A stretch of DNA of 64,000 nt from a bacterium (GCA_963663405.2 CAXXSM010000122.1:64001-128000); one strand, 5' to 3'; counted from the first letter of the stretch, positions 23,592 through 43,322 are shown. Numbers and translations: made by a program. The notes: generated by a model not told the origin, from the sequence alone.

Positions 23592-23593
23592 TC

Positions 23594-27264: not shown

Positions 27265-27336
27265 GGGGTATGTTCGGAATACGTGTAATAAGTAGTCACT
27301 TCAGCCCATTTTCCGAACAGTATGGGTGAGGCCGTG

Positions 27337-28071
27337 TTAAATTCCGATCTCGCCAACCGCCTGCTGATACGCATTCTCAGTACTCTCCAGCGATAAATGT
27401 TGATAAACCTCAAGACTTTTCTTGCTTTCATGTCCGGAAATTAATTGGATTTGCGCATCCGACAACCCTTTAGATGTAAGATACGTGATCATTTGGTGAC
27501 GAAAAAGGTGAGGGTGTATCTTTTGCTCGATGCTAGCCTCTTTGCGGTATTCTTGTACGATTTGCTGCACCCGCCGCGTAGTAAAAGGCCCATTCCGGGT
27601 GGTTTCAAACAGGTACACATTCGCAGGGTTGCTCTTGAGATAGGTTTTTAAGACTAATCGAAAATTTTCCGGAAAGAGAATATACCGGTCTCGAAATCCT
27701 TTTCCTTGCTGGATGAAAATCTTGCAGTTTTCAATATCGATATCACTGACTTTTATCTTGACGAGTTCGCTCACTCGCAGGGCGGTATAAAAAAGGAATT
27801 TCAGCATAATCTCATGCTGTAGATTCCCGCACTGCTGAATGATCTTAAAGAAACGTTTGAGTTCGGAGTCGGGCAGAAGTTGAGGCAGAATGCGTTTTCT
27901 TTTGGGTCTTTTCAATCCTAACTGCTTGCGGGCTTCCTGGCAAACATAGATAAAACCATCGTAATCAAGATGGGCTTTTCGCGCCAAGCGAACGATTTGG
28001 CTTACGGTTTTCGATTTCGCATTTTCGTTTGCGGATACGAAATTGGAAGCCTTTTTTGTTCTTTTTGCCAT
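27337..28071 (-). CDS. Tyrosine recombinase (cointegrate resolvase)
   Basis: YTALRVSEL, QGKG..DR, HPHLFRH, SGH and Y motifs; lies inside the Tn3 IRs. Confidence 0.88.
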   Translation of the reverse strand: MAKRTKKASNFVSANENAKSKTVSQIVRLARKAHLDYDGFIYVCQEARKQLGLKRPKRKRILPQLLPDSELKRFFKIIQQCGNLQHEIMLKFLFYTALRVSELVKIKVSDIDIENCKIFIQQGKGFRDRYILFPENFRLVLKTYLKSNPANVYLFETTRNGPFTTRRVQQIVQEYRKEASIEQKIHPHLFRHQMITYLTSKGLSDAQIQLISGHESKKSLEVYQHLSLESTENAYQQAVGEIGI

Positions 28072-28169
28072 GAGTAGAGCCCTTTTTCTTCTGTTTTTAT
28101 TCGTCTTTTATCTATTCTGCGAAATCATATATTGTTCCCAATTTCCTGTAAAGTTATCTGAGGATTCCC

Positions 28170-31163
28170 ATGGCTTCAATCGAACGAACGGCTTATCCCT
28201 ATTTCCACAACCAACTTACGGAACAAGAATTAGAAAACTGCTACGAACTGTCTGATCCGGAACGACGTTTTGTCCAGTTGAATGCAAACGGAGCGAGCCA
28301 GCGTCTGACATTAATGGTTATGCTCAAAACGCGCCAGCACCTTGGATATTTCCCCATGCTAAAGCACGTGCCCGAACAAATCCTGGATCACCTTATTAAA
28401 CAATTCGGCTTTTCTCTACCCCCTCCTTTGCTTGACGAGGATAAACTGAAAAAAACACTTCACCGATATCGTAAGGCCATACGAACGTATCTCAACAGCA
28501 AACTCTTTTATGCCCAAGAAGGCCGCAAATGTGTTCAAACTGCTGTTCGCCGCGCGGCTTACACGATGAGTGATCCAGCGGACTTAATTAATGTAGCGAT
28601 TGAAATACTGGTCAAAGAGAACTTCGAACTACCGGCATTTAGTGCACTGGACCGCATGGCCGGTCACATCCGCCAAAAAGTTCATCAAGAATTGTATAAC
28701 AAGATCACTTCAAAACTATCCGCTCAACAGCGACGATCATTGAACACCTTGCTGGAAATACGCTCCGGAGAATCTCAGACAGATTTCAATCGTCTCAAAC
28801 AAGCGCCAGGAACTCCTACACTCAAGCATATGCGATGTTGGGCGGGACGGCTCGCTTGGCTTGACTCGATACTCGATCCAAAACCCTTTTTTGAAGGGAT
28901 CGCCCATACGAAGATTCGTCAGTTCGCTGCGGAGGCAGAGGCCCTCGAAGTTGGAGATATGCGAAAAATCCAGCAACCAGGAAAACAGTACACGTTTCTT
29001 CTGTGTTTGCTTTACCATGCACAGGTTAGAACTCGAGATAACCTGATTGAAATGTTTCTCCGGAGAATGCAGCGTTTACATGCAACAGCCGAGGAGCAGT
29101 TGCATGTATTACAAGAAAAGCATCGTGTGATCGAAGAAGAAATGATTACCGTTCTGGCTGAAGTCCTTGATCAGGAGAACGGTGAGTGTTCTGACAAAGT
29201 ATTAGGCCAACGAGTACGCCAAGTATTGGCTGCACATGGTGGAGTAGACACGCTGAAGATGCAGTATGAAAAGGTCTCTGCTTATCACCACAACAATTAC
29301 TTTCCATTGCTGTGGCCCATTCACGCTCGCAATCGAGCCACGTTGTTTCGGTTGTTGGATTTACTTCAGATTGAGTCGGCCACTCAAGACACCACCTTGC
29401 TCGAGGCCCTGGCTTTCATTCGACGTCACCGTCATACACGGCGAGATTATTTACCTCATGAAATTGCTCTTGATTTTGCGACTCAACGCTGGCAAGCGTT
29501 TGTACAAAAAAAGGTTCGCACCAACAAGGAAGAATCTCTATTGAACCGGCGGTCGTTGGAAATATGTGTTTTTACTTATATAGCCAAGGCTTTGCGAAGC
29601 GGTGATTTGTATGTCGTTGAGTCAGAAGCATATGATGATTACCGCAAACAACTACTACCCTGGGAACAATGTCAAACTCGATTGGCGAATTACTGCAACG
29701 CGCTTGACATTCCAAACAACGGACATCCGTTCGTAACGCAATTGCGTGAGCAACTGATGGAATTTGCTCAGAAGGTCGATAGCAGTTTCCCCGATAACAC
29801 CGAGTTGAGCATTGATGACAATGGAATTCCTCATTTGAAGAAGCAGGGCGCCTTACGTTTACCCGATGGATTTGCCGCGTTTGAAGAAACCGTCAGATCT
29901 CGGATGCCGGAACGTCATCTACTTGATATTCTAAAAAACGTCCAGTACTGGACAGGCTATTCACGGCATTTCGGGCCACCATCGGGAACAGATCCAAAAC
30001 TCGCCGAGGCGATCAAAAAATATATGTTCACCGTTTTTGGTTACGGCTGCAATCTGGGAGCCAGCCAAACCGAACGTCACGCTCCAACGGATATCAACCG
30101 GCACACGCTACGGCGAATTAACGCACAGCACATTACTACGACCAAACTTGAAGCGGCTTTGTGCGATATCATTGCAGAGTTTGTCCGCTTCGAACTTCCC
30201 CAATTCTGGGGCAGTGGAAACGTGGCGATTGCCGATGGAACTCATATCGCATTACGCGAAAACAATCTTCTTGGCGAACGTCATATCCGTTATGGGGAAT
30301 ACGGAGGCATTGCCTATCATCACATCTCTGACATGTACATTGCTTTATTCAGTCACTTCATCGCTTGCGGCGTTTGGGAAGCAGTGTACATCCTCGATGG
30401 TCTGCTCAAGAACACATCGGCTCTACAACCGAACACTGTTCATGCTGACACGCATGGACAAAGTGAACCGGTCTTCGGTTTAGCTAAATTGTTGGGGATC
30501 AAACTCTTTCCTCGTATGCGAACATGGAATGACGTTATATTCTATCGCGTAGACAAGCAGACCACTTATAAACATATTGATGCGTTATTTACGCAAGTGG
30601 TTGACTGGTCATTGATTGAACGGCACTGGCAAGACATGATGCAGGTGGTTCTCTCGATCCAGGCAGGAAATGTGTTACCATCCATGCTGCTCAGAAAACT
30701 CGGTTCGCATAATCGAACCAACAAATTGTACCGGGCTTTCCGGGAACTGGGCCGAGTCGAGCGCACATTATTTCTTTTACGCTATATTTCTGAACCCGAA
30801 TTCCGATTTACGATTCGCTCCGAAACGACAAAAATTGAATCCCATAACAGTTTTCTCGACTGGATATCTTTTGGAGGGCCCATGCTTAAGACAGGTGATC
30901 CTGTCGAGCAAGAAAAACAAATCAAATACACGAACCTTATCGCCAATGCGGTTATGTTACACAACGTAATAGATCTGACGGAAGTTCTCAATACAATGAC
31001 AACGGAAGGTTATGTAGTGACATCCGAATTACTCCGTAGGTTGAGCCCATGTATGACCAGACACCTCCGCCGTTTTGGCCAATACACTTTGGATATGGAG
31101 GCTCGACCCGATCCATTGGTTTTAAATCCATTACAGTTCACCAACAACGAAAATCTGAAGTGA
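28170..31163 (+). CDS. tnpA: Tn3-family transposase
   Basis: 997 aa; IERTAYP N-terminus, ADGT, EAVYILDGLL, HADTHGQS, FRELGRVERTLFLL, K.ESHN. Confidence 0.95.
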   Translation: MASIERTAYPYFHNQLTEQELENCYELSDPERRFVQLNANGASQRLTLMVMLKTRQHLGYFPMLKHVPEQILDHLIKQFGFSLPPPLLDEDKLKKTLHRYRKAIRTYLNSKLFYAQEGRKCVQTAVRRAAYTMSDPADLINVAIEILVKENFELPAFSALDRMAGHIRQKVHQELYNKITSKLSAQQRRSLNTLLEIRSGESQTDFNRLKQAPGTPTLKHMRCWAGRLAWLDSILDPKPFFEGIAHTKIRQFAAEAEALEVGDMRKIQQPGKQYTFLLCLLYHAQVRTRDNLIEMFLRRMQRLHATAEEQLHVLQEKHRVIEEEMITVLAEVLDQENGECSDKVLGQRVRQVLAAHGGVDTLKMQYEKVSAYHHNNYFPLLWPIHARNRATLFRLLDLLQIESATQDTTLLEALAFIRRHRHTRRDYLPHEIALDFATQRWQAFVQKKVRTNKEESLLNRRSLEICVFTYIAKALRSGDLYVVESEAYDDYRKQLLPWEQCQTRLANYCNALDIPNNGHPFVTQLREQLMEFAQKVDSSFPDNTELSIDDNGIPHLKKQGALRLPDGFAAFEETVRSRMPERHLLDILKNVQYWTGYSRHFGPPSGTDPKLAEAIKKYMFTVFGYGCNLGASQTERHAPTDINRHTLRRINAQHITTTKLEAALCDIIAEFVRFELPQFWGSGNVAIADGTHIALRENNLLGERHIRYGEYGGIAYHHISDMYIALFSHFIACGVWEAVYILDGLLKNTSALQPNTVHADTHGQSEPVFGLAKLLGIKLFPRMRTWNDVIFYRVDKQTTYKHIDALFTQVVDWSLIERHWQDMMQVVLSIQAGNVLPSMLLRKLGSHNRTNKLYRAFRELGRVERTLFLLRYISEPEFRFTIRSETTKIESHNSFLDWISFGGPMLKTGDPVEQEKQIKYTNLIANAVMLHNVIDLTEVLNTMTTEGYVVTSELLRRLSPCMTRHLRRFGQYTLDMEARPDPLVLNPLQFTNNENLK

Positions 31164-31202
31164 CTACTTATTACACGTATTCCGAACATACCCCTTGTTT
31201 TG

Positions 31203-32135
31203 TTAAGCCAGTATTTCTTCAAGCGTTTTGAGACTTTTTTTATGCTTGGCGGGATTCTTCTCGATCAGTTTTTGTAGATTCTTCTGTTTCCAGCGAACCG
31301 CTGGCATGTTCTTCAGAATGGGCGACGGAAATAAATCCCATTCAGGTTCGCCTTTCTTAAAGCTAATCAAAAACCGTTTGTCTTTGTCACTCATACTCTT
31401 GTGAATTTCTTTTACAAGCCTTTCTCGTGTTTCCTCAAATTGTTCGTAGGAGAAGGGTTCCAATGTCATGCCCTTAAACTTTTTTTCGAACGTATCTTTT
31501 TGATCCAGAAAGTTAGGATGGATCATTTCATTAATTGGCCGTCCGCCGCCTAACAAAATGGCAAGAAACCCGGTTTTGACGGCATCGGTAATCCCTTCTT
31601 TTTGCAAAAGGTTATGAACGTCAAACAAGTCGCGTGGATGCTGGCGGTCCAGTGCGGCACAGATTTTCCCGCCAAATAGTTCTTGATGGGAGATCACCTT
31701 GATCGCTGCGAATTTCTTGAAGGCCGCTTCGACAACATCGGAAACCGGCATAACGCGGCTCGGCCATATTTCGCCACGCAACGTCGTATTAACTTCGATA
31801 ATGATGTCGGCTGTAGAGGGTCTTTGCAGAATGACCGAGAGTTTGGCTTCCGCTCCATCACTCTGGCTTATGGTTTTAACGTCAACCTCAGGAAGGGCCG
31901 ATTCCAAACGGTTCTTTATACGTCCCAGACCGTTGGCGATATTCTCCAGGGCGGTATTTCTACTGTCCAACGGTGTATAGCAAAGATCAATATCGACGGA
32001 CAAACGAGGCATATCCCAAACAAAAAGATTAATCGCCGTTCCGCCTTTAAGCGCAAAGATGTCCTCTTCGTCAACGTGGGGCAATACACGCAAGAGAAGG
32101 TTCACCTTGGCTTCATAAATTGGATTAATTTTCAC
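31203..32135 (-). CDS. abiEii: AbiEii/AbiGii nucleotidyltransferase toxin (type IV TA)
   Basis: FALKGGTAINLF...RLSVDIDL and GKICAALDRQHPRDLFD. Confidence 0.92.
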   Translation of the reverse strand: MKINPIYEAKVNLLLRVLPHVDEEDIFALKGGTAINLFVWDMPRLSVDIDLCYTPLDSRNTALENIANGLGRIKNRLESALPEVDVKTISQSDGAEAKLSVILQRPSTADIIIEVNTTLRGEIWPSRVMPVSDVVEAAFKKFAAIKVISHQELFGGKICAALDRQHPRDLFDVHNLLQKEGITDAVKTGFLAILLGGGRPINEMIHPNFLDQKDTFEKKFKGMTLEPFSYEQFEETRERLVKEIHKSMSDKDKRFLISFKKGEPEWDLFPSPILKNMPAVRWKQKNLQKLIEKNPAKHKKSLKTLEEILA

Positions 32136-32899
32136 AATTCCGCCAACTCCTGCGGTACGCTGATTTTGTATTCCGGTATGTAGACGCCCCCTTTAACAAT
32201 TGCCCGATCGCCTTTTCCGGTATCAATATGATCTGCATTGAAATATTTAAACCATTGATGTCCGGCTTTGCCCGCCATGTACAAAAACAGCCTTTTTACC
32301 TTGATGGATTTACAGTCTTCCAGAAGAGGCTGTAAAAGACGTGGACGCAAATTGGCAAGGCCCTCCATCAGGTGATAGCATTCCACCAAATCGAAATGAT
32401 CCGGAACAAGATAAAGACATTCAAGTATGGCTCTTTCCGGTTCGGATATTTTGAGCGTTAGTTGTTCCTTCTGATAGCCGCTGATGCCTTTGCCGGTTGG
32501 CAAAAAATTGGTACGCGAGACAAGCACTTCGTTTCCCCAGTCCTGTTCCTGAAACCATTTGGGTAACGAGTGGCCACGTGGCATAAAAATATGCGCGATT
32601 TCACCGCTCCATCGTAAATAATGGGTGTATCCTTGCAGGGAAAGCGCCGTAAGAGCCCCGGCATGGGCTTTATGGTCTGTCTGATTTTGTAAAGCGGATA
32701 GCGCCGCTTTCCAATCGACTTCGCAGCCTGCCCGTTTATATGCGCCTTGTCCAAGGCTTTCCAGCCACCCGGTTCGGCGATAATAACGTTGCAAGTCATG
32801 CGATATATGGTGAGTATTCAGCCATGACGAAAGACAGACTTGTCCTTTGGGGCATAGATCCAGCAACTTCTTTAATTTTGTATCTGAAACCGTAGCCAT
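32132..32899 (-). CDS. abiEi: AbiEi antitoxin / transcriptional regulator
   Basis: GWLESLGQGAY, TALSLQG, SEPERAILECL, LRPRLLQPLLEDCKSIKVKRLFL; overlaps the toxin start. Confidence 0.9.
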   Translation of the reverse strand: MATVSDTKLKKLLDLCPKGQVCLSSWLNTHHISHDLQRYYRRTGWLESLGQGAYKRAGCEVDWKAALSALQNQTDHKAHAGALTALSLQGYTHYLRWSGEIAHIFMPRGHSLPKWFQEQDWGNEVLVSRTNFLPTGKGISGYQKEQLTLKISEPERAILECLYLVPDHFDLVECYHLMEGLANLRPRLLQPLLEDCKSIKVKRLFLYMAGKAGHQWFKYFNADHIDTGKGDRAIVKGGVYIPEYKISVPQELAEL

Positions 32900-33006
32900 G
32901 CTACGAATATACCATTATTTTTAATGTAGAGAAAGACTTCATATCAAATTGATATCCAGTTATTTGGGGTGACCGGTAGCAACGGGGCAGGGGAGAGTGA
33001 TAACTT

Positions 33007-33042
33007 GGGTACTACGCACATTCGTCCGCAAATGGGCGCTAA
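33007..33042 (+). repeat. Tn3-type terminal IR, same sequence and orientation as 27125
   Basis: GGGTACTACGCACATTCGTCCGCAAATGGGCGCTA (1 mismatch), followed by a res-like region and a resolvase. Confidence 0.8.
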
Positions 33043-33191
33043 CGGATTCTCAATGATCGATCTTTCTTCCCTTTCAAAAAGGTATTACCATTTGATTTTG
33101 TTATGAAAGAGGTTTATGCAAGGCGAAAACCGGGGGTTTTAGTGGTTTTGGGAATCCTTGCATAAACGAACGTTTTTGAAGGAATAAAAAC

Positions 33192-33770
33192 ATGATATTT
33201 GGGTACAGCCGCATCTCAAAAGGAGACGACCAGAATTCCAAGTTGCAAGTCCAAGCATTCAAAAAGGCAAAGGTCGAGAAGGTCTTTCATGAAACGGCTT
33301 CGGGAGGCCGTTGGGATAGACCCAAACTACATGAAATGCTTGGGCAACTCAGAAAAGGTGATGTTGTTGTTGTCTGGAAACTCGACCGTCTTTCACGTTC
33401 ACTGAAAGACCTCCTTGCTATTATGGAATGTATCAGCAACGCTGGAGCCGGATTCAAGAGCCTGACCGAATCCATAGATACCACAACCCCAGCAGGCCGG
33501 ATGATGATGCAAATGGTGGGTTCCTTTGCAGAGTTTGAACGAGAAATGATCCGCGAACGCACCAAGGCTGGGCTGGATGCCGCTCGTAAAGAAGGCCGCA
33601 TTGGTGGTCGAAAACCAAAACTCCGCCACGATCAGAAGAAAGATGTGGCAGAGAATGTTCTGTCAGGGAGAAAGACACAGGCGCAAATGGCACGGCTCTA
33701 CGATGTCAGCGAGGCCACGATTTCAAGGATTGTGACCCGACTCAGGCAAAAATATGGACTAATTGAATAG
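33192..33770 (+). CDS. tnpR: Serine resolvase (TnpR/Hin family)
   Basis: GYSRIS (catalytic Ser), VWKLDRLSRS, AEFEREMIRERT and a C-terminal HTH. Confidence 0.92.
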   Translation: MIFGYSRISKGDDQNSKLQVQAFKKAKVEKVFHETASGGRWDRPKLHEMLGQLRKGDVVVVWKLDRLSRSLKDLLAIMECISNAGAGFKSLTESIDTTTPAGRMMMQMVGSFAEFEREMIRERTKAGLDAARKEGRIGGRKPKLRHDQKKDVAENVLSGRKTQAQMARLYDVSEATISRIVTRLRQKYGLIE

Positions 33771-33922
33771 GTTTTGAGTCGGATCAAAAAAAGTGGCGGA
33801 TCTGGTATCTTTGATGGATTTAACCCTTCATCGTATTAACCTCACTTGTTAAGAGGCCAATCGTACTCAATCCGGAAGCGTTATTGTAAACAGAATTTTT
33901 CTGGGAGGTGGGGATGTTTGGA

Positions 33923-33960
33923 TTGGGCAGGAAGTGAGGGCAACCTCACCTCCTACCCAA
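33923..33960. terminator. Long stem-loop just after the 581-aa gene stop
   Basis: TTGGGCAGGAAGTGAGG-gcaa-CCTCACCTCCTACCCAA; no clear U-tract. Confidence 0.4.
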
Positions 33961-33965
33961 TAAGA

Positions 33966-35690
33966 TTAATAATCATCTGGTCCTTTAAGCATTGCGTAGA
34001 GCAAGTCACCGACAATCATAAATTTCACAAGTCCAGCGTTCCCTGCCACCGGCTTTACTTCTTTCGTTGAGCCCCATTGAAAAATAAGTTGACAGATCAC
34101 ATTATCACCGCCTTCATTGTTCATAAAGATCGTACAAAGATATGTAGCTGCTCGATCAACGCTATCGCCTTCGCCCCATTTGGGAATACGAAGGATCTCG
34201 AGACGCTTCCCTGCTCGTAAGTCTCCTTCCGCTATGGAAAAACTCTGCTCATTCAAACGTTGAGGCTGTGCTGGCAAAGCATCCGCTTGGCTCTGAGCCA
34301 AAGTAAGCTGTTTTTGAAGTGCCGAAAAATCCGCAGACGCATATCGCTCGAGGTGTACTACGTTTACCTCCCAACAGCCGGGGGCTTCTGTGGAAACATC
34401 CTCGCGGCTTTCTTTCAAGGTATGAGTTGTCTTCAGCTGGCGTGCACTCCAGCTCATAATCTTCTCGTAGGCTCCTTCACTAATTTCATATAAGTTTAGA
34501 GCTGTTGGGATCGTAATTTGACCGTCGACTATTTCTTTTTTGTATTTCTCGGATAGATATTCCTTGCTACTCGAAGTATCTATATTGGCAGACATATTTG
34601 CACTCAACCACAAGAACTTTGCAGCACCACTGGCTTTGACGGAGACGGAATTGCTCTCGCTAGTTTGAAGAAGATCCTTATTCTCATTTTCAAAGGAGTT
34701 GATTACACTTTCTTTGACACCCTTTGAATTGAGATAATCCCGAATGATGTCCCAATCTCGTTCGGCTTTAAAATCTACTTTTATTTCCTGGAACATCTCG
34801 GTCATAAGCGATTCAATCCAGCTGAGAAAGGTTTTATTATCCTCTGTATCTACATCCATGGATCTAAACAAAACGTCTTTTGAAGCCGTGAGAACCTCCT
34901 CAATCTGCGCCTTTTGAAGTTTGTCGACAAACCTTGGTTTGAGTGAGTGTCGAACATCATTGTCACTGATGGAACTACTCGCATCGATAATAGACTGGAC
35001 TGCTTTCGCGACTTGTATTCGACCATCTGCACTTTGGTCGCTGACCCAGGCTTCAGCATAGAGACGTTGCGTAATAATAAAACGTGCATTACCTTCTTCT
35101 ACCCATTTCTTGAACGTATCAGCGTCTTGTTGGTTCTCAACCAATGCATCCAAAAAGATCAGCTGGGATTTAGGATAATAACGTTCAAAACTAGCGAAAT
35201 GATAATCCTTAATCATATTCGGTGTGATATCCTCCACGCGTACATAGTAGAGTTCTGCAGGATTGACATTCGCCGGTGTGATACCTGGGACTATGTTGTG
35301 TCGGTTCAGCAATGCTGCAATCTTATAGCGTGTCCCGACTGGATTCTTGGCAAGTTTAATTGTGCACTGGCGGGTATGCCGCTGGTTCTCCACAGATTTA
35401 AACGGAATTTCACGAATGGTTACATCTACCAGCCCATTTTCCTCCAGGATAAAATGCCAAGGCGCCGTGTATAATACATTCATTCCCGTTGGATCACCGG
35501 GCATTCTGAAAATTTGAATATCGAGTCCGTCGATACGAACGGTCGCCAACCAGTTACCAACAACTTGGGTGAAATGTTCATTTATGCCGACGTCTGTTTG
35601 GCTTGCGGAACATCTCATGAAAATTGTGTTAGAGAACATGAACATGAGAGTAAAAGCTAACGTTGTAATGACATTTCGTGTTTTAATCAT
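33966..35690 (-). CDS. Secreted hypothetical protein (about 575 aa)
   Basis: AAAGGAA RBS before MIKTRN, signal-peptide-like N-terminus and a Ser-rich alternating segment. No family recognised. Confidence 0.75.
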   Translation of the reverse strand: MIKTRNVITTLAFTLMFMFSNTIFMRCSASQTDVGINEHFTQVVGNWLATVRIDGLDIQIFRMPGDPTGMNVLYTAPWHFILEENGLVDVTIREIPFKSVENQRHTRQCTIKLAKNPVGTRYKIAALLNRHNIVPGITPANVNPAELYYVRVEDITPNMIKDYHFASFERYYPKSQLIFLDALVENQQDADTFKKWVEEGNARFIITQRLYAEAWVSDQSADGRIQVAKAVQSIIDASSSISDNDVRHSLKPRFVDKLQKAQIEEVLTASKDVLFRSMDVDTEDNKTFLSWIESLMTEMFQEIKVDFKAERDWDIIRDYLNSKGVKESVINSFENENKDLLQTSESNSVSVKASGAAKFLWLSANMSANIDTSSSKEYLSEKYKKEIVDGQITIPTALNLYEISEGAYEKIMSWSARQLKTTHTLKESREDVSTEAPGCWEVNVVHLERYASADFSALQKQLTLAQSQADALPAQPQRLNEQSFSIAEGDLRAGKRLEILRIPKWGEGDSVDRAATYLCTIFMNNEGGDNVICQLIFQWGSTKEVKPVAGNAGLVKFMIVGDLLYAMLKGPDDY

Positions 35691-35836
35691 TTCCTTTCCT
35701 TTCGAAAACAAAATTAATCAGATGCCTGAAAAAACGGGGATTCATCGCAACGAGTCGGGGGGGCGACCTGCGCTGAATCCCCTTCTCACACCTCCGGGAA
35801 TACCTCCCCGGTACCTTAGCTGTTTCTTTGGTATGA

Positions 35837-36364
35837 TTATTTGTTGATGGCTTCGTCAATCGCTTTTTCTGCTTCTGGGATATGCTTTCGAATCAGTTTA
35901 TTTGCCTCTGGCTCAACGAGGGGCTTCACAGGGATGCGGAGTAATGTACGTCCGCTAACCTTAATGGGGATAGTTGCATCATCAAGGTAAATTGCCACTT
36001 CGAGGTGAGAACGTACTTTTCCATCCGGTAGTTCTTCGAAACGAATCGCCCCCTTCAGTGTGCCCTTTAGGTCAACAGAGGCGCTGATGTCACCGATCAG
36101 CACTCGAACCTTTGCAGATGCATGTCCTCTAATGGGAACCGAAAAATGGAGTCGGCCATCATCGCTCATCGAAAGAGAGATGTGGCCACGGGTGACATGA
36201 TAAGATCCGCTACCGTTCGGAATGTTATTGATCGGACCGGAGAACTCCGCTGGAATTTTAGTATTTGCCACCGCTTCGATGACCTCAATAGGAATATCGA
36301 CCTGTGTGAAACCATAACTAATGGAAACCATGACGACGAATAACGAGAATGCGATTTTTTTCAT
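35837..36364 (-). CDS. Secreted beta-rich hypothetical protein (DUF4403/TULIP-like?)
   Basis: AGGAG RBS before the MKKIAFSLFVVMVSISYG signal peptide; long amphipathic strands. Confidence 0.7.
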   Translation of the reverse strand: MKKIAFSLFVVMVSISYGFTQVDIPIEVIEAVANTKIPAEFSGPINNIPNGSGSYHVTRGHISLSMSDDGRLHFSVPIRGHASAKVRVLIGDISASVDLKGTLKGAIRFEELPDGKVRSHLEVAIYLDDATIPIKVSGRTLLRIPVKPLVEPEANKLIRKHIPEAEKAIDEAINK

Positions 36365-36510
36365 TTTTCTACTCCTTCTTCTGTTTTTTGAAACGATTGA
36401 GTGCGTTCTAAAACTTTTCAATAATTTTTGTTCCTGGGTTCGAGAGGGAAATCGATCCCATTGGGGTCTGCGCGAATTTGGTTCATGGCGGTTTCCTCCA
36501 GATTGGTTTG

Positions 36511-36888
36511 ACTATCCTCGCTTGTAATAATGGCAAGATTTGCCTAAATCTGTTTTTTTCCCCTTTCGCGTGTACTTGTTTGAATAACTCGGATACTTGC
36601 CAAAATTTTTTCCGGATTCTTGATTCCTAATTTGCTGGCGTATACCCGAACAATCTCGTTTAACCCCGTGCAGGCTGGCGTCATGATGATTCTCTCCAGA
36701 CCATCCTCGCTTGTAATAGGGGCAAGATTTTCCCAAATCTGATTTTTTTTTCTTTCGTGTGCACTTGTTTGGATAACTCGGATACTCGCCAAAATTTTTT
36801 CCGGATTCTTGATTCCTAATTTGCTGGCGTATACCCGAACAATCTCGTTTAACCCCATGCAGGCTGACGTCACAATGATTACCTCCAG
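36511..36888 (-). repeat. 189-bp tandem duplication encoding a 63-aa repeat (ORF 36544-36873)
   Basis: Two copies, each starting on the minus strand with GGAG plus a start codon and encoding GLNEIVRVYASKLGIKNPEKILASIRVIQTS. Confidence 0.8.
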
Positions 36889-37290
36889 TTTTGTTCGGCT
36901 TGTTTCGGTTATGTTCGGGCGGAATTGTGGCGAGATCTGACAGATTTTTTTTGGACGAAACAGCTACTCCGCGGGATATCTCAAAAACAAAATCCTCGAA
37001 ACGACAAAATGGATTTTCTAATGCGGTGAGTTATCATGCATTTTTCATATGTCGGGGACTCTGGGTTTGGAAATATACGGTTGAACTTTTCGTATTTGTA
37101 CAGGAGAGCCTTTAAAATGTGATAGCCATTTCAAGTAATTTTACGATTTAAAGAAGAAATTTATGTCAGAAAACATATCCTTTTCACCAATACATAATTG
37201 GGGAAATATCCCCCCGTCATTATTAGCCAAAAGTATGGAATAACATCTTTTAATGAAAAGCCCGAAACAGTCGTCAAGCGGAGGAGTCTA

Positions 37291-38964
37291 ATGAGTAAAT
37301 CAAATGAAGAAAATGCGTTCGAAAAAATGGTTCTCGAAATGGTTCATGATCCCAAAAGTGACTCACGGCTTCTAACCACTACTGAAAAAGAACCGGATTT
37401 ACCACTTCATGTTTATAATCTCACGAAAAATGTTTATTATGAGAATAAACTCATGATGCAAAAGAAGGAGATTAAAGAGAATCAAATCAATACGATGGCA
37501 TTGTTCGTCTTTGTTCGGTTATGCCAAAACCAATGCACAAATCGCGAACCAGGATCCCCATTATCCAAGAGACATGTTTGGGAGATTTTAAGATACGAAT
37601 ATTTGGGATTTCAGAAAACAGAGTTCGAAAAAATAGTTCTCGAAATGGCCAATGATCCCAAAAGTGACTCTTGCTTTCTTACCACTATTGAAAAAGAACC
37701 GGATTTGCCACTTCATGTTTATAATCTCACGAAAAAGGTCTATCGCGAAAACATACCAAGGATGCTAGAGAACGGAATTCAAAAGGATCAAATTGAAAAA
37801 ATCGCATTTTCTCTTTTTGTCCGACTTTGCAAAAATCCAATATCAGATCGCTCTCCTGGTGACGGAATATCCCACTGGTATGTGTGGGATGTTATACGCG
37901 ACGAATATTTGGGATTCAGCAGAGGCAAATTCGCGCACGATAATCAGGTTTTATTGAGCTACGACGTGTTGAGTCAAGAGTACGCCTGTGAATTTTTGAA
38001 GAATGCTCCAAAAACTCCGCATAATCAAAAAGTCAAAATAAAACTCGCTGATTGGAAAACCCCGCGAGACTACGCTATCGAACAGGAATTTCTACAGAAA
38101 GATCGGAAACCGATCCGAAAGATCTTTGCACTTATAGAGAAGATCGTAGCGCTTGATTATTACCTCGCACGTTATCGCAATCGCAAGAAAGATTCTCTTG
38201 ATGATAACTGGCATGAGCGATTTGGTTGTTTTATCTCTTGTGAGAATGTCAATAATAAAGTTCAAGAGTTCGAAACGAAAAAACTAACGCAAAATGCTGC
38301 CTATAAAGCAAAAAGTCGAAGTCTAAACGCTCTTCGTACTCTTCTTTTTCTCATTCCGTTTCTTCTCTTTGTTTCGTTTTTTTCAACGATTATGCCTGTG
38401 GACAATACTATTTCGTTGAACCATGCCGAATCGCAAGCCGGTGATAGTCGTCAGTTGAGCCTGGTCGCGGCGAGTGAGCAAGCTGGTGACAGTCGCCAAT
38501 CGAGCCTGGTCGCGGCGAGTAAGCAAGCTGGTGACAGTCGCCAATCGAACCTGGTCGCGGCGAGTAAGCAAGCTGGTGACAGTCGCCAATCGAACCTGGT
38601 CGCGGCGAGTAAGCAAGCTGGTGACAGTCGCCAATCGAGCCTGGTCGCGGCGAGTGAGCAAGCTGGTGACAGTCGCCAATCGAACCTGGTCGCGGCGAGT
38701 AAGCAAGCTGGTGACAGTCGCCAATCGAGCCTGGTCGCGGCGAGTAAGCAAGCTGGTGACAGTCGCCAATCGAACCTGGTCGCGGCGAGTGAGCAAGCTG
38801 GTGACAGTCGCCAATCGAACCTGGTCGCGGCGAGTGAGCAAGCTGGTGACAGTCGCCAATCGAGCCTGGTCGCGGCGAGTAAGCAAGCTGGTGACGGTCG
38901 CCAATCGAACCTGGTCTCGGCGAGTAAGCAAGCTGGTGATAGTCGTCAATCGAACCTGATATAA
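37291..38964 (+). CDS. Sigma-70/ECF-like protein with duplicated N-domain, TM helix and 12 x 15-aa C-terminal repeats
   Basis: GGAGGAG RBS before ATG 37291; two ~102-aa repeats; LTQNAAYKAKSRSLNALR (sigma 4.2-like); hydrophobic LLFLIPFLLFVSFFSTIM; AGDSRQ repeats. Confidence 0.7.
   Translation: MSKSNEENAFEKMVLEMVHDPKSDSRLLTTTEKEPDLPLHVYNLTKNVYYENKLMMQKKEIKENQINTMALFVFVRLCQNQCTNREPGSPLSKRHVWEILRYEYLGFQKTEFEKIVLEMANDPKSDSCFLTTIEKEPDLPLHVYNLTKKVYRENIPRMLENGIQKDQIEKIAFSLFVRLCKNPISDRSPGDGISHWYVWDVIRDEYLGFSRGKFAHDNQVLLSYDVLSQEYACEFLKNAPKTPHNQKVKIKLADWKTPRDYAIEQEFLQKDRKPIRKIFALIEKIVALDYYLARYRNRKKDSLDDNWHERFGCFISCENVNNKVQEFETKKLTQNAAYKAKSRSLNALRTLLFLIPFLLFVSFFSTIMPVDNTISLNHAESQAGDSRQLSLVAASEQAGDSRQSSLVAASKQAGDSRQSNLVAASKQAGDSRQSNLVAASKQAGDSRQSSLVAASEQAGDSRQSNLVAASKQAGDSRQSSLVAASKQAGDSRQSNLVAASEQAGDSRQSNLVAASEQAGDSRQSSLVAASKQAGDGRQSNLVSASKQAGDSRQSNLI
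38437..38961 (+). repeat. 45-bp in-frame tandem repeat, 11 full units plus 1 partial
   Basis: Unit GCTGGTGACAGTCGCCAATCGA(G/A)CCTGGTCGCGGCGAGT(G/A)AGCAA encodes AGDSRQS(S/N)LVAAS(E/K)Q. Confidence 0.95.
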
Positions 38965-38994
38965 GTGTAGATCGTAAAACAAGGAGAAATTATC

Positions 38995-39633
38995 ATGAAA
39001 AATACTCATAAAATTAATGAAAAACGATCATTCTATTTTACATTGATCCAAGCAAAAGATGGAGAAAAAGAATTTCGACGGAAATGCAACCGATACGAAG
39101 AAATACGAGAAACCGGAACTGATGACGAAAAGAAAAAACTCCATGATGAAATTTTGAGAGATTTAGATTCTTACGACGGCGATGGTAGTGAATGGTTAAA
39201 ATGGAACATGATCGCCACAGGACATTCTACTCTTGGAAATATAGAGAAAGCTGTAGAAATAGATGAAAATCAATGCATCAAATTCGCTTTGGAAGAACCG
39301 GAAGAAAAAGAAAAGAACCGGAAGCTTTCTGTGACATACAATAATCTCTGCGACGGGTATCGGCGTTTGCGCAATGCAGATAAAGCAATTGAATGCGGAA
39401 TGAAAGCTCTTCATTACGATGATAACAATGAAGGTATTTGGAAAAACTACGCGTTAGCGTTGATATATGGAGGGAAAGAAGACGAAGGAATCCAGATCCT
39501 GAAAAAATTACGCGAGTTATCGAATTGGGACGAAATTAGTTCTATTCTCGCAGCTGCGGTTCGTTATGAACAAGATTTAATCGATAAAATCATGGAAAAC
39601 GACGAATTAAAGAACATTCTTTACCCCTTTTGA
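38995..39633 (+). CDS. Cytoplasmic TPR protein
   Basis: AAGGAG RBS; TPR-like units IATGHSTLGNIEKAVE, TYNNLCDGYRRLRNADKAIECGMKAL and WKNYALALIYGGKEDEGI. No signal peptide. Confidence 0.8.
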   Translation: MKNTHKINEKRSFYFTLIQAKDGEKEFRRKCNRYEEIRETGTDDEKKKLHDEILRDLDSYDGDGSEWLKWNMIATGHSTLGNIEKAVEIDENQCIKFALEEPEEKEKNRKLSVTYNNLCDGYRRLRNADKAIECGMKALHYDDNNEGIWKNYALALIYGGKEDEGIQILKKLRELSNWDEISSILAAAVRYEQDLIDKIMENDELKNILYPF

Positions 39634-39651
39634 AAACTTTATAAGGGATAA

Positions 39652-39689
39652 GGGTACAACGCATATTCATATGGAAATATTCCGTAAAT
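39652..39689 (+). repeat. Third Tn3-like terminal IR
   Basis: GGGTACAACGCATATTCAT... resembles GGGTACTACGCACATTCGT and abuts the tnpS-like gene end. Confidence 0.55.
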
Positions 39690-39694
39690 ATCCC

Positions 39695-40657
39695 CTAATA
39701 CACAACCTGAAACGTCGGGCTTTCCTCGGGCTTGTCATGCCGTTTGTCGTAGAGGCGGGTGGTGGAGATATTGGCGTGTCCGAGCCAGGTTTGCACCTTG
39801 GCGATATCGGCTTCGTGTTCGAGGGCGTTGGTGGCGGCGGTTGCCCGCAGGGAGTGAACGCAGAGGCCGGGGAAATAGATGTTCGCTTTCCTACAATAAT
39901 AAAGAACAATCTTGTAGAACGAATCCGGATGCATTGGCTTGCGGAGCGTGCCGGTACGGTTGTTTTTAAATGGGCGGAAGAGGGGACCGTCCAGATCCTC
40001 CCCATGACCGGCGGCCTGTAAATACGCTTGGATGGCGGTGACCGTCACGGGATGGACGGGGATGAAGCGCGTCTTGTCGCCTTTGCCGTGAATTACAAAA
40101 CAATGCATCCCGCGCCGGGGGGTGAAGTGGCGAACCTGAAGGGCGGATATTTCGCTACGCCGGAGAGCGTGGTAAAGCAGGGTGGTGAGAATGGCCCGAT
40201 CGCGTTTGCCTTTAAGAGTGTCGTCGAATGTCGAATGGAGAAGAATCCGGGCTTGATCGTCACTGATGGCGGGGGTTTTCCCTTCGTTGGCGTTCGCGTT
40301 GGGGCTTTCAACGCCGCTGACCGGATTGTGCGTAATGGCGTTCTCATTGCAGAGGTAATCGAATAGGGAGGCCAGAGCGGAGAGTTTACGCCGGACGGTG
40401 GCGGGAGAGAGATCCCGCTGGTCGAGGTCGTTGCGCCACGCGATGATGTGGGCGCGGGTGACGAGGCGGAACTCATCCGGCTGGTGGATTCCGGTAAAGG
40501 CCATAAACTCGTTAAGGTCGTTCCGGTAGGCGCGGCGGGTGTTCGGGTTGCGGAGATTGGCGAACCGTTCGATCTCCGGGGGTACTGCGGCCCGTTGGTG
40601 AAACGCCTCGTCGGTCAGAATTCGCGAAGGGGAAGGAACCAGTTCTTGCTCATTCAT
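39695..40657 (-). CDS. Tyrosine recombinase, TnpS-like (Tn4651-type cointegrate resolvase)
   Basis: [54 protein letters not shown]. Confidence 0.82.
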
Positions 40658-40845
40658 CCAGGAAATCCTTTTGTGCGGCAGGAAAGAAAAAAATAGCGCA
40701 ATGAGAGGCGGTTTTCTTTTTTCCTACCGCCCGTTTTTAGGGATCATTTTATTCGTGATAAAATCGATTATTAAGAGTAAAAATACTTCTTGACTTATTG
40801 TTACAATATTGCGACAATATCTGTAAGGAGAACGGATGCCAGAAA

Positions 40846-40961
40846 CACGCTTGCTTTTTTATAAAGAAGAAGACGGAATTAAAGAAATCGAATGAGCGAT
40901 TGAACGGAAAAAAAATCTGGATAACCCGGAACTCCATACACACGAGGAGGATTTGTTATGA
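40846..40961 (+). pseudogene. Remnant 3' end of a RelE/HigB (Gp49-like) toxin gene
   Basis: Reads KEIE*AIERKKNLDNPELHTHEEDLL-stop with an internal stop; its TGA overlaps the antitoxin ATG. Confidence 0.5.
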
Positions 40962-41302
40962 ACAAACGAAAAACCACGACGGACGGTGTGGAAATCCTGC
41001 ATCGCCGGTATTTTGAAGGAAAACCGGAAATGCTCGCCCTTCTTGAAGAAGAAAGAGCCAATGCCGATGTAGCGCAAATTATTTACGATTTACGCCAAGA
41101 AGCAAAACTTACCCAACAAGAATTGGCTGATCTAATCGGAACTAGCCGGACAGTTATTACTCGATTGGAAGATACGGATTACAATGGACATTCTCTATCC
41201 ATGTTACGGCGCATTGCTACCGCCTTGAACAAAAAAGTTCAAATTGAATTTGTTCCTATCGCTCATCAAGCCAAGGTTTCCAGCCTGCATACCCCCCATT
41301 GA
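40958..41302 (+). CDS. XRE-family HTH protein (HigA-like antitoxin)
   Basis: IYDLRQEAKLTQQELADLIGTSRTVITRLED..Y.GHSLSMLRRIATAL. Confidence 0.88.
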   Translation: MNKRKTTTDGVEILHRRYFEGKPEMLALLEEERANADVAQIIYDLRQEAKLTQQELADLIGTSRTVITRLEDTDYNGHSLSMLRRIATALNKKVQIEFVPIAHQAKVSSLHTPH

Positions 41303-41474
41303 GCGTCTTACTCTTTTTGCGCGAATCGTTGCTGAACTCCTTTTCCTTATGCGCCATTATTTCTAGGCCGTTTTGAGAATTCAATAACTGGAAAAAAAGA
41401 TACACATCAAGCAAGGCTCTCACAAAGTATACTTTCCTATACTTAGGATCAGGAAACCGTGGGTTTCCATTCAA

Positions 41475-43322
41475 ATGCGTCCGCTAGTCCCATATGGAAG
41501 AATGAAAATGCAATTACGTCAATGGTTTGTTTTAAAAGTTGTTTTCACTCAACTATTGTGGTGTTTATTACACGGGAGTCTAGCTGGATTTACCGCAAAT
41601 GTTTTTGCTGATAACGGGCCGGCCATTCCGTACAAAGTACAATTCTCTGGAATCCGAGAAAAACAATTGATCCAACAACTCGGAAAATATTCCAAAACCG
41701 TTGAACTGCAAAATCGTCCCCCGGCTTCCCTAGCCTTGCTGGAACGCCGCGCTGAACAAGATCTTCCAAGGTTAACGAAAATCTTGAGGTCTTTTGGATA
41801 TTTAGACGCGGAGGTGATATATAAAATCGAAAGTCAAAAGGATTCCACCTTTGTTGATTTTCAGATTGATTCAGGACAACCATACAATCTGGTTTCTTTT
41901 GATTGCCACTGGATTCAGTCAGCCAGTGAGACGCCGGTTCTTCCTCCGTCTAAAACCCTCGGACTTGAAATGGGGAAACCAGTGAACGGCCAATCTATTT
42001 TGGAAGGGCAAACAAAGATCCTCAAGCGCTTGCAAAGAAACGGCTACCCTTTCCCCCGCATTGTGAATAAAAAACTGATCGCGGATTCGGAATGCAAAAC
42101 CGCCGCTCTACTGTTTGAGATTGATCCGGGGAAAAAAGCCGTCTTTGGGGAAACGTCAATAGAGGGCCTTGATACGGTGCGGGAATCGTTCATCCGCAAC
42201 CGGCTGGAGTGGGAAGAAGGAGATTTATTTGACTCACGGTTGTTGGATGACACGCGGTTGAATCTATTCAAGTCCAATCTGTTCGCCATGACGCGAATCG
42301 AATTGGCGACCACTATTGAAGTGAGCAATAAGACGCCAGTAACCATCTCCCTGACAGAAAGAAAACCACAAACGATCGGCGCGGGAGCCGAGTATCGTTC
42401 CGATGACGGGCCGGGAGGGAAACTGGGATGGGAGCATCGTAATCTCTTCGGTGAAGGGGAACGTCTGGCTGCGGACGCCATGTTTTCGGGGATTGAATAT
42501 TCGGGGGGGCTCGTTTTCAAAAAACCGGATTTTTATGACAAAAATCAGTCCTTTCTTACGGAATTGCGGATCGCCGATGATCACCCCGATCCTTACTCCA
42601 GCCGGAATATCGGCTTGTCGTTTCTACTGGAACGAATTCTCAATGAGGAGATGAAGGTTTTGGGGGGAGTATCTTATCGCTTGGCCGACGTGACTCAATT
42701 GGGCGAATCGAATTCTTTCGGCTTATTGTCGCTGCCGGCTAAATTTGAATGGCTCGCTGTTGATGATGTTTTCAATCCCACAGAAGGTGGGCGTCTGAAA
42801 TTCCAGGCCGCGCCGTATTACGACACCTTGGGAACCAACATGGCTTTTTTTAAAAGTTATGGAAAGTACAGCCACTATTTTTCATTGGTGGACGATTCGA
42901 ATCTCATTTTCGCCAGTCAGATTGGTGTGGGATCTCTCGTCGGCGATTCGTTGAAATCCTTACCTGCTGATGAGCGTTTTTACGCGGGCGGTGGTGGCTC
43001 CATCCGTGGATACCCCTACCAGATGGTCAGTCCCTTACAAGACAATCATCCCATTGGAGGCCGATCTATTTTGGAACTCTCCTTTGAACTGCGGATGCAA
43101 TTGTCGAAGCATTTTGGCTTTGTCACTTTTCTGGATGGCGGCGCCGCGTTTGAATCCGTTCTTCCCGATTCCAGCGAGGATTTGCTGTGGGGCACAGGCG
43201 TGGGCCTTCGCATTTTCACGCCCATTGGCCCGTTTCGGCTGGATGTCGGTTTCCCCTTGAACAAGCGCGAGGCTATCGATGATTCCGTCCAGATTTATAT
43301 CAGCATCGGCCAAGCGTTCTAA
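41475..43322 (+). CDS. tamA: Translocation and assembly module TamA (Omp85 family)
   Basis: POTRA domains, HRNLFG, FYAGGGGSIRGY, TPIGPFRLD and the YISIGQAF beta-signal. Confidence 0.92.
   Translation: MRPLVPYGRMKMQLRQWFVLKVVFTQLLWCLLHGSLAGFTANVFADNGPAIPYKVQFSGIREKQLIQQLGKYSKTVELQNRPPASLALLERRAEQDLPRLTKILRSFGYLDAEVIYKIESQKDSTFVDFQIDSGQPYNLVSFDCHWIQSASETPVLPPSKTLGLEMGKPVNGQSILEGQTKILKRLQRNGYPFPRIVNKKLIADSECKTAALLFEIDPGKKAVFGETSIEGLDTVRESFIRNRLEWEEGDLFDSRLLDDTRLNLFKSNLFAMTRIELATTIEVSNKTPVTISLTERKPQTIGAGAEYRSDDGPGGKLGWEHRNLFGEGERLAADAMFSGIEYSGGLVFKKPDFYDKNQSFLTELRIADDHPDPYSSRNIGLSFLLERILNEEMKVLGGVSYRLADVTQLGESNSFGLLSLPAKFEWLAVDDVFNPTEGGRLKFQAAPYYDTLGTNMAFFKSYGKYSHYFSLVDDSNLIFASQIGVGSLVGDSLKSLPADERFYAGGGGSIRGYPYQMVSPLQDNHPIGGRSILELSFELRMQLSKHFGFVTFLDGGAAFESVLPDSSEDLLWGTGVGLRIFTPIGPFRLDVGFPLNKREAIDDSVQIYISIGQAF

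Follow-up and report, generated by a model that had tools for sequence, protein, structure and literature searches.

Sigma factors of the extracytoplasmic function (ECF) family that carry membrane-fused extensions have been described in groups ECF48, ECF52 and ECF53 (PMC8999054). In SCO4117 of Streptomyces coelicolor, a member of ECF52, the outer region is of low complexity and proteolytic release has been proposed (PMC5826349), and IutY of Pseudomonas putida (ECF243) is a single-chain membrane-bound sigma factor that is activated proteolytically (PMC8999054). In ECF42, a tetratricopeptide repeat (TPR) extension of ~200 residues is required for activity and is thought to act through protein contacts (PMC8999054, PMC7826278). 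In this study, we analysed a stretch of bacterial DNA of 64,000 nucleotides (GCA_963663405.2 CAXXSM010000122.1:64001-128000; hereafter the window) and focused on P0001, a gene whose product consists of a ~350-amino acid (aa) cytoplasmic part, a single transmembrane helix in N-in orientation and a repeat tail that is exported, and on P0002, the TPR-like gene that follows it. P0001 is restricted to its lineage and resides in the inner membrane, its N terminus facing the cytoplasm. We tentatively read it as a membrane-tethered sigma/helix-turn-helix (HTH)-like regulator that may resemble ECF52 or IutY and may have P0002 as its cytoplasmic TPR partner.

A different type of system was proposed in an initial annotation of this locus, in which intramembrane cleavage would free a sigma-like part and the ~12 peptides of the tail would serve as a re-imported quorum signal bound by the TPR protein. 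In the known systems of this kind, referred to as RRNPP, the validated propeptides are 21-50 aa long (10-100 aa in the detector range) and carry a Sec or PptAB signal. Their receptors are 250-500 aa long (285-473 aa for the validated ones), match TPR hidden Markov models (HMMs) with E < 1e-5 and coverage >65%, and are encoded next to the propeptide gene (PMC10075063). These systems belong to Gram-positive Firmicutes and their mobile elements (PMC10075063, PMC9765709). The initial annotation also stated that no described system has such an architecture, which was an overstatement, because membrane-fused ECF52 and TPR-dependent ECF42 sigma factors are in print. As for the layout of P0001 itself, literature searches covered ECF extensions, RRNPP systems and membrane-tethered repeat ECFs, and no description was found among the publications listed on the last of these, to judge from titles and opening parts of abstracts; absence from print is not claimed.

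The features of the two genes are as follows (positions are counted from the first nucleotide of the window).

37280..37286, + strand: ribosome-binding site GGAGGAG of P0001, 4 bases before the ATG at 37291 (sequence reading)
37291..38964 (including the stop codon), + strand: P0001, 557-aa orphan single-pass membrane protein (open reading frame and translation)
37318..37611, + strand: module 1, aa 10-107 (Tandem Repeats Finder (TRF) period of 306; gapless 98-aa alignment)
37624..37917, + strand: module 2, aa 112-209 (duplication alignment; weakly aligned by hhalign with the sigma-2 part of the ECF profile)
37918..38337, + strand: third cytoplasmic region, aa 210-349 (aa 250-334 faintly sigma-4/HTH-like; aa 330-349 basic)
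38338..38400, + strand: transmembrane helix, aa 350-370 (Kyte-Doolittle hydropathy; the only place where the AlphaFold2 predicted local distance difference test score (pLDDT) is 69-88)
38434..38961, + strand: periplasmic tail, aa 382-557 (11 full and 1 partial unit QAGDSRQS(N/S)LVAAS(K/E), encoded by a 45-bp minisatellite)
38981..38987, + strand: ribosome-binding site AAGGAGA of P0002 (sequence reading)
38995..39633 (including the stop codon), + strand: P0002, 212-aa cytoplasmic TPR-like protein (TPR_2, AlphaFold2, Foldseek, codon score)

P0001 shares with ECF52 the succession of one helix and a low-complexity outer extension, which is here a tail of 176 aa that is not proline-rich. However, in ECF52 proteins the ECF domain is clear, the helix is preceded by an anti-sigma domain of the zinc-finger type, and a region rich in proline leads to a terminal carbohydrate-binding module; these proteins are reported only from Actinobacteria (PMC5826349), whereas the host of P0001 has an outer membrane. 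In P0001, no sigma, zinc-finger or carbohydrate-binding domain was found with Pfam, the module is duplicated, and the 15-aa minisatellite tail has no end domain. With IutY, P0001 would have in common the single-chain, membrane-bound design that we propose for it; IutY possesses a C-terminal regulatory extension, the removal of which activates the protein (PMC8999054). ECF42 resembles our locus in that a TPR domain of ~200 residues is tied to a sigma factor, the counterpart here being the 212-aa TPR-like P0002 encoded 30 bp downstream, but in ECF42 the TPR domain is fused to a soluble sigma factor, whereas P0002 is a separate gene beside a membrane protein of putative sigma nature. The extension of IutY is FecR-like and is signalled by a TonB-dependent receptor; neither a FecR-like domain in P0001 nor a TonB-dependent receptor gene nearby was detected among the open reading frames (ORFs) scanned with Pfam. 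P0001 is set apart from all of these proteins because curated models detect no sigma domain in it, because it has no zinc finger or carbohydrate module but a duplicated module, and because it belongs to an outer-membrane host and not to an actinobacterium, and it is not a member of ECF48, ECF52, ECF53, the IutY group or ECF42.

Two other types of system deserve comparison. The RRNPP pairs (Rap, Rgg, NprR, PlcR, PrgX and AimR) are likewise adjacent genes, one product of which is exposed outside while the other is a cytoplasmic TPR protein. They differ, as far as described, in that P0001 is a 557-aa protein with an internal anchor instead of a 21-50-aa Sec propeptide, in that P0002 has 212 aa instead of 285-473, and in that the host is not a Firmicute. 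RodZ-type proteins consist of a cytoplasmic HTH, a juxtamembrane basic stretch, one helix and a low-complexity periplasmic region, and, as they illustrate, an HTH-like fold can sit at the membrane without a role in transcription. RodZ has a folded C-terminal periplasmic domain and is widely conserved, whereas P0001 is an orphan in which no XRE-type HTH was detected with Pfam.

Structure of P0001 and P0002

The open frame that encloses P0001 extends from 37198 to 38964 (+), and the ATG at 37291 is likely to be the start of the gene. Codon usage was scored with a model trained on 1370 ORFs of at least 500 aa from the genome (mean 0.265, standard deviation 0.07, 5th percentile 0.136). P0001 scored 0.154, which is low for this genome and near the 5th percentile; the five other frames all scored -0.10 or lower, and the P0001 frame was the best of the six in each of the four sub-segments. 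The score of P0002 was 0.324. Because of the frame-specific codon usage, the ribosome-binding sites, the ratio of non-synonymous to synonymous substitution rates (dN/dS) of 0.39 between its modules and the excess of synonymous changes in the first unit of its tail, P0001 is a real gene; this is an observation of the same kind as those on topology signals, repeat structure and orphan status given below.

The only stretch of P0001 with a Kyte-Doolittle 19-residue mean above 1.6 is the hydrophobic segment at aa 350-368, where the mean reaches 2.29. Six Lys/Arg and no acidic residues are present at aa 330-349, and Asp and Glu follow the helix. On account of the positive-inside rule (basic before and acidic after the helix), the first ~350 aa are assigned to the cytoplasm and the last ~185 aa to the periplasm. 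No in-frame ATG, GTG or TTG is present in the 29 codons before the helix; therefore, P0001 has no shorter signal-peptide form, and the tail can be exported only within the whole protein. On sequence and hydropathy, the anatomy drawn in the initial annotation is correct: a cytoplasmic part is followed by one helix and a repeat tail that is exported, and the neighbouring gene encodes a cytoplasmic TPR protein.

The cytoplasmic part of P0001 contains an internal duplication that was not mentioned in that annotation. TRF detected a 306-bp tandem repeat of 2.0 copies with 76% matches, and the two modules can be aligned without gaps over 98 residues, of which 58 are identical. The overall dN/dS between the modules is 0.39; dS is 0.26 and dN/dS 0.32 over the first 40 codons, and dS is 1.14 and dN/dS 0.35 over the last 58 codons. 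Judging from the dS of 1.14 and dN/dS values of at most 0.39, the duplication is an old one that is subject to purifying selection and whose 5' end has been partly re-homogenised.

The tail is encoded by an array that TRF placed at 38433-38958 (period 45 bp, 11.7 copies, 95% matches, score 926). In the register of the protein, it consists of 11 full 15-aa units and an 11-residue partial one, inside which the protein terminates; the near-identical, in-frame units noticed in the initial annotation are thus present, but there are 11 full units and one partial unit rather than 12 full ones. The DNA of units 2-10 varies only at two sites, each with two alleles (S/N and E/K), which occur in all four combinations; the edge units are more diverged than the interior ones. 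Compared with the consensus, unit 1 has four synonymous changes and one non-synonymous change, in addition to the E allele at the polymorphic site. To judge from this pattern of variation, the tail appears to be a recently expanded, homogenised and recombining minisatellite that is read in the P0001 frame. The copy number of the array is possibly inexact; the source assembly is 82% complete and in 170 contigs. Because 10 of the 15 residues of each unit are polar or Gly, because each unit has LVAA as its sole hydrophobic cluster and because no domain is present at the outer end, the tail is probably a disordered segment.

The 45-bp array was not found elsewhere in its own genome. A genome-wide TRF analysis yielded 26 arrays (period of at least 15, at least 4 copies, score of at least 300), 23 of which have a period divisible by 3, and the P0001 array is thus not special for this genome, being one of 23 in-frame minisatellites. 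Other in-frame arrays are located on contigs C36 (16242-17260), C41 (13417-14718) and C3 (20213-20721), and the arrays of the genome include a collagen-like one of 81 bp x 12.6 (96%) and leucine-rich-repeat-like ones of 63-69 bp, both types being recognised by eye. Several readings of the tail were rejected. The Pfam matches to DUF5709 and to Glutenin_hmw (31.3 bits, where the cut-off is 50) reflect the composition of the tail; ice-nucleation, RTX, YadA-type and coiled-coil pentadecad readings of the 15-aa unit have no Pfam support at E ≤ 1, and the unit has a single hydrophobic cluster; and an array of clustered regularly interspaced short palindromic repeats (CRISPR) is ruled out, as spacers are absent.

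P0002 begins 30 bp past the stop of P0001, on the same strand and in the same frame, with the stop codons TAA (38962) and TAG (38968) between. No terminator-like site was found between the two genes, the promoter and terminator scans being at chance level, and P0002 contains no hydrophobic segment (best window 0.52). P0002 is therefore probably co-transcribed with P0001, because of the 30-bp gap without a terminator-like site, and its product, which lacks a hydrophobic segment, is cytoplasmic. The description of a signal-less TPR gene 30 bp downstream was accordingly confirmed by sequence and hydropathy, with the TPR profile match below the cut-off. In Pfam, P0002 matched nine TPR/PPR-type (tetratricopeptide or pentatricopeptide repeat) families at E values from 2.5e-5 to 0.28, all below the cut-offs of the families; the best was TPR_2 (E 2.5e-5; 24.5 bits, the cut-off being 27). 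In single-sequence AlphaFold2 modelling, the mean pLDDT was 64.4, with values of 74-91 over aa 100-180, and four helices formed TPR-like hairpins at aa 104-175. The best PDB matches listed by Foldseek were consensus TPR, Hop, SGT and FKBP51 modules and MamA, at E 3.3e-3 or weaker. On this modelling, P0002 would probably contain a TPR-like domain of two to three motifs; it is a generic TPR-like protein of small size that resides in the cytoplasm, and its N-terminal part of ~100 aa is charged. The YNN and KNY strings that had been pointed out as possible peptide-binding Asn residues are present in P0002. We take the Asn of YNN to occupy a position where the TPR consensus itself has Asn, and YNN is therefore not evidence of peptide binding.

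By the searches performed, both P0001 and P0002 are complete orphans. Aa 1-350 of P0001 gave a single match, to itself, in a phmmer search of 1.84 billion representatives, and aa 1-380 again matched only themselves in a word-indexed search of 5.8 billion clusters (5321 candidates), as did P0002 (253 candidates). P0001, P0002 and their neighbours (five local ORFs), as well as the repeats, are all single copy in their own genome. No relative of P0001 or P0002 was found in plasmids and phages (tblastn), none of 104 pattern matches in metagenome contigs was confirmed, and no true relative of either protein was found in 30 related genomes. The PDB sequence search returned one chance match for aa 1-350 (E 1.4) and nothing for aa 205-346. 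The best foreign match in the related genomes (E 1.2e-5) was to the P0001 tail and came from ~1250-aa proteins with unrelated ~30-aa repeats. These proteins (L050, 1053-4886, - strand; L051, 884-4651, + strand) have repeats of the form AGENLGxF...LxGxxLNxFL and an apparently beta-rich C-terminal part, and they gave the only foreign matches of the tail, with E values of 1.2e-5 to 0.01 at 21-26% identity; we read this similarity as a composition match and not as homology. The matches of the N-terminal part of P0001 in the related genomes (E ≥ 0.08), to a 965-aa ORF that has neither helix nor repeats and is GlnE-like by eye, are spurious.

Sigma-like signal in the cytoplasmic part

The string NAAYKAKSR..L..LR (aa 335-350), in which the initial annotation saw ECF region 4.2, is the basic flank of the membrane helix. 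What survives of its sigma-like label is a weak, sub-threshold ECF-like signal at aa 107-334, with no match in the curated libraries. This signal was obtained with a home-made profile built from 28 ECF sigma factors of the same genome, which was common to the hhalign and HMM tests. When aa 1-346 of P0001 were compared with the profile by hhalign, aa 107-334 aligned colinearly with positions 17-218 over 189 columns (score 20.5, P 0.028, probability 1.7%). Module 2 coincided with regions 2.1-2.4, while the linker and region 4.1 were matched by aa 250-291 and the HTH of region 4.2 by aa ~300-334; in this weak alignment, KDQIEKIAFSLFVRL...SHWYVWDVIRDEYL of module 2 is placed against regions 2.1-2.4. 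None of 60 shuffles reached the score of the whole N-terminal part, and aa 206-346 alone scored 20.4, again with none of 60 shuffles as high. In hmmsearch with the --max option, P0001 scored 3.4 bits (E 0.0029 at Z=1), with a domain at aa 250-291 on profile positions 104-145 (independent E value 0.023 at Z=1). Among the 3494 ORFs of at least 300 aa in the genome, 37 scored 3.4 bits or more, P0001 being one of them, and three of the ORFs that ranked above it are true sigma-family proteins. A protein language-model search of named clusters with aa 105-346 listed sigma-70/ECF in six of eight rows and HTH families in the other two, at cosines of 0.83-0.84; in the unrestricted search, sigma clusters appeared at ranks 13 and 26 among 30.

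A number of observations weigh against a sigma-like fold. The hhalign probability is just 1.7-3.8%, 5 of 127 control segments from real proteins of the genome match the hhalign score of P0001, and the two-module alignment (score 16.2) is equalled by 2 of 60 shuffles. The hhalign and HMM tests share the profile and are not independent, so that they count as one line. The language-model cosine is at most 0.85, below the line of 0.9, and is a lead only; moreover, a third of shuffled proteins reach 0.8 and ten concordant top families in this search. No sigma or HTH family was found in P0001 by Pfam (E ≤ 10, four sub-pieces), NCBIfam or PHROGs; in particular, Pfam detected no Sigma70_r2 domain (E ≤ 1 for the whole protein, E ≤ 10 for the four pieces) and no Sigma70_r4 or r4_2, and of the 37 matches of Sigma70_r2 in a scan of the whole genome none was at this locus. 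Between the putative sigma-4 region and the helix, no zinc-finger or anti-sigma domain was matched by Pfam at E ≤ 1, and the putative HTH ends ~15 residues from the membrane helix. To our knowledge, a tandem pair of sigma-2-like modules is not known among sigma factors. The single-sequence AlphaFold2 model of aa 1-380 has a mean pLDDT of 40.2, with values below 50 over aa 1-334. The generic ECF-type promoter AAC-N16-17-CGT was not found in 35700-37300 (0.68 expected), and there were no relatives of P0001 for a check of motif conservation. Apart from these points, the PADLOC models gave nothing for P0001, and a hydrophobic helix after sigma-4 was seen in none of the seven long sigma-family ORFs of the genome that were examined. 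In the AlphaFold2 model, the cytoplasmic ~350 aa are predicted, with low confidence, to be all-helical.

Thus, two largely independent weak lines, the profile and the language model, concur on the sigma family at a level that ~1-4% of the controls also attain. That P0001 carries a real sigma/HTH-like fold is a possibility, with the balance somewhat against it.

Genomic surroundings

The P0001 locus lies in a variable, mobile-element-rich stretch, where the G+C content is 40.9% (36-38 kb) versus 46.9% for the genome. The surrounding features are listed below.

27265-27304 and 31155-31194, strand not applicable: perfect 40-bp inverted repeats of a Tn3-family element (997-aa DDE_Tnp_Tn3 transposase and 244-aa tyrosine recombinase)
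31203-32899, - strand: AbiEii toxin/AbiEi antitoxin pair (type IV, abortive infection; library match)
33192..33770, + strand: serine recombinase (resolvase/invertase), left flank (Pfam Resolvase, E 1.1e-43)
33966..36421, - strand: two divergent genes with N-terminal hydrophobic leaders (581-aa orphan at 33966-35711; 194-aa protein at 35837-36421)
36510..36888, no strand assigned: two tandem copies of a 189-bp unit within the divergent intergenic region of 870 bp (TRF, 90% matches)
39695..40657, - strand: tyrosine recombinase, right flank, convergent with P0002 (Phage_integrase E 6.4e-21, Phage_int_SAM_1 E 1.8e-11)

The inverted repeats of the Tn3-family element enclose just the transposase and the recombinase, which rules out the P0001 locus as its cargo, and no convincing inverted repeats for an invertible segment were found beside the resolvase gene. 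As for the divergent genes, a search of genome contigs for relatives of the 581-aa protein gave 19 pattern matches, none of which was confirmed. The 194-aa exported protein matches DUF4403 (E 4e-13) only in the first 164 of its 425 positions (7-164), and is either a short form or a truncated gene. A 32-nucleotide inverted repeat (78%) connects 36335-36366 with 37790-37821, comparable in strength to the chance pairs listed with it, and the string KIAFSLFV is common to the signal-peptide start of the 194-aa gene (KKIAFSLFVV) and module 2 of P0001 (EKIAFSLFVR); the inverted repeat may reflect local patchwork gene building. The duplication in the intergenic region includes a minus-strand 109-aa frame (36544-36873) that carries the duplicated motif twice and shows weak matches to the C-terminal end of PADLOC CARF_PDDEXK (316-352 of 378, E 4.7e-5) and to the MerR N terminus (E 1e-3). 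This duplication could represent the remains of a duplicated gene or else a small regulator.

Downstream of P0002, at a distance of 2-4 kb, are genes for TamA (at 41475; Omp85 E 2.8e-51, with POTRA) and TamB (at 43335; E 1.3e-63), and because these are encoded there the host has an outer membrane. In three relatives, the 12-14 kb upstream of tamA shared no ORF with the window except tamA, indicating that synteny is lost. The window as a whole is unusually rich in mobile elements; additional transposases in 21042-26083 and 54085-55800 are of the ISL3 type (426 aa), an IS3-type rve integrase (252 aa) and Transposase_29 (571 aa, E 5.8e-205), the ISL3 and IS3 genes being to the left of the P0001 locus. 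A defence-like cluster at 6728-14256 comprises a methylase of the Eco57I/MmeI type (1029 aa), a SNF2/ResIII helicase (685 aa) and a fusion of a pentapeptide-repeat protein to a TIR domain (425 aa). Polymorphic-toxin-like cassettes at 49508-52884 encode two PT-HINT proteins, one of which ends in a GH-E HNH/EndoVII nuclease, and a SUFU-family protein encoded after them could be the immunity protein.

Explanations for P0001 and their significance

If P0001 is a membrane-tethered sigma/HTH-like regulator, module 2 and the third cytoplasmic region would form a very divergent sigma-70/ECF-like unit (sigma-2, linker and sigma-4/HTH), and the protein would be a one-protein transcription regulator tethered by its own helix, as in ECF52/SCO4117 and IutY. 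Activation would take place when proteases attack the periplasmic part and the helix is then cut within the membrane, and the tail would be an exposed sensor or protease substrate and not a pheromone precursor. P0002 would most likely bind the cytoplasmic part of P0001, like the essential TPR extension of ECF42, because it is without an export signal. The sigma-like fold, the proteolytic release, the contact with the TPR protein and any target genes of the regulator are what we infer. In a more elaborate version of this mechanism, which we regard as very unlikely, the two tandem sigma-2-like modules and the sigma-4-like region on the helix would make a self-contained switch with no anti-sigma domain. 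The minisatellite would then act as a stepwise proteolytic fuse, its cuts could free peptides, and the TPR protein would serve as a gate for the cytoplasmic part or as a sensor of the peptides.

A possible, if doubtful, alternative is that P0001 is an orphan envelope or accessory protein without a transcription role, in which the sigma signals would have arisen by chance, the modules would bind proteins, the TPR protein would be an adaptor and the minisatellite would be a disordered, copy-number-variable segment, as in single-pass proteins of the RodZ-like or scaffold type. The absence of any family match in Pfam, NCBIfam, PHROGs and PADLOC is consistent with such a protein, as are the sigma tests that stand just at the 1-4% level of real-protein controls and the frequency of in-frame minisatellites (23 of 26 arrays) in this genome. 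The setting agrees as well: the locus is situated between a serine and a tyrosine recombinase, with the Tn3 element, the AbiE pair and transposases of insertion sequences nearby, in DNA of 40.9% G+C (36-38 kb) versus 46.9% for the genome. However, three weak tests, two of which share a profile, agree on sigma/HTH, a tail without an end domain would be an odd spacer, and this explanation names no concrete activity. An anti-sigma-like membrane sensor, in which the ~100-aa modules would bind a sigma factor encoded elsewhere that is released when the tail is degraded on a signal, is unlikely. It would account for the N-in single-helix layout, which most anti-sigma factors have, with one helix in 82 ECF groups (PMC7826278), and it would find modules of about the right size and, in the low-confidence model, helical, in a genome with many ECF sigma factors (37 Sigma70_r2 matches). 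Yet no zf-HC2, RskA, FecR or similar family was detected by Pfam at E ≤ 1, and the weak similarity is to sigma factors themselves and not to their partners. Furthermore, anti-sigma genes typically occupy position +1 relative to their sigma gene (PMC7826278), whereas P0001 adjoins no sigma gene and has the TPR gene and the divergent orphans as its neighbours. Still less probable is that the frame is decaying or without function, in an island rich in junk, and that its repeats are a neutral minisatellite staying open by chance. P0001 is indeed an orphan in every collection searched, its codon score (0.154) lies close to the 5th percentile (0.136), each of the three forward and three reverse frames is partly open across the array, and the locus is full of local duplications. 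But a 557-codon open frame in DNA of 41% G+C with a strong ribosome-binding site, a frame that is the best of six in all four segments, a dN/dS of 0.32-0.39 between modules diverged to a dS of 1.14, and four synonymous changes versus one non-synonymous change in unit 1 all speak against decay.

The least probable of the explanations, and a highly improbable one, is the peptide-signalling model of the initial annotation. Part of what it needs is present, namely near-identical units outside the membrane and an adjacent TPR gene (30 bp away, on the same strand) with a cytoplasmic product; the structural neighbours of the TPR model also include peptide-binding 3-TPR modules (Hop, SGT and a designed consensus TPR with peptide; E 3e-3 or weaker), and intragenic duplications are known in RRNPP propeptide genes (PMC10075063). 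In four of the five features of the RRNPP signature (PMC10075063), as well as in host and fold, the locus nevertheless departs from these systems, and only the adjacency of the genes agrees. The repeat-bearing protein has 557 aa, outside the range of 10-100 aa, and carries no N-terminal Sec signal, its sole hydrophobic segment being at aa 350-368 with no internal start before the helix. P0002, with 212 aa, is below the range of 250-500 aa, and its TPR_2 match (E 2.5e-5) is weaker than the E < 1e-5 rule and under the Pfam cut-off. No Rap-, NprR-, PlcR- or AimR-type receptor was among the Foldseek matches listed, which is a weak test given the mean pLDDT of 64.4 of the model. The host has an outer membrane, and peptides would face two barriers on the way out and again on the way in. 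The units bear no mark of being processed into peptides, and Pfam matched no family of proteases or peptide transporters in the 15 ORFs of 27337-43322. The variation of the interior units, which is confined to two non-synonymous two-allele sites, points to array homogenisation and not to a conserved signal, and the Asn of YNN in P0002 is presumably that of the TPR consensus.

Should the sigma-like reading be wrong, P0001 would be one more orphan membrane protein in a mobile-element-rich island, and the main lesson would be that repeats, a membrane helix and a TPR neighbour are insufficient to call a peptide-pheromone system. If, on the other hand, P0001 is a membrane-tethered sigma-like regulator, membrane-fused one-protein sigma factors would extend beyond the actinobacterial ECF48, ECF52 and ECF53 and beyond IutY, all of which retain a sigma domain that can be recognised, into a different outer-membrane bacterium, and in a barer design that has no anti-sigma domain and a minisatellite as its only outer part. 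In that case, a slippage-variable number of repeats would set the length of the sensor or protease substrate and would provide a simple cell-to-cell variation of the signalling threshold.

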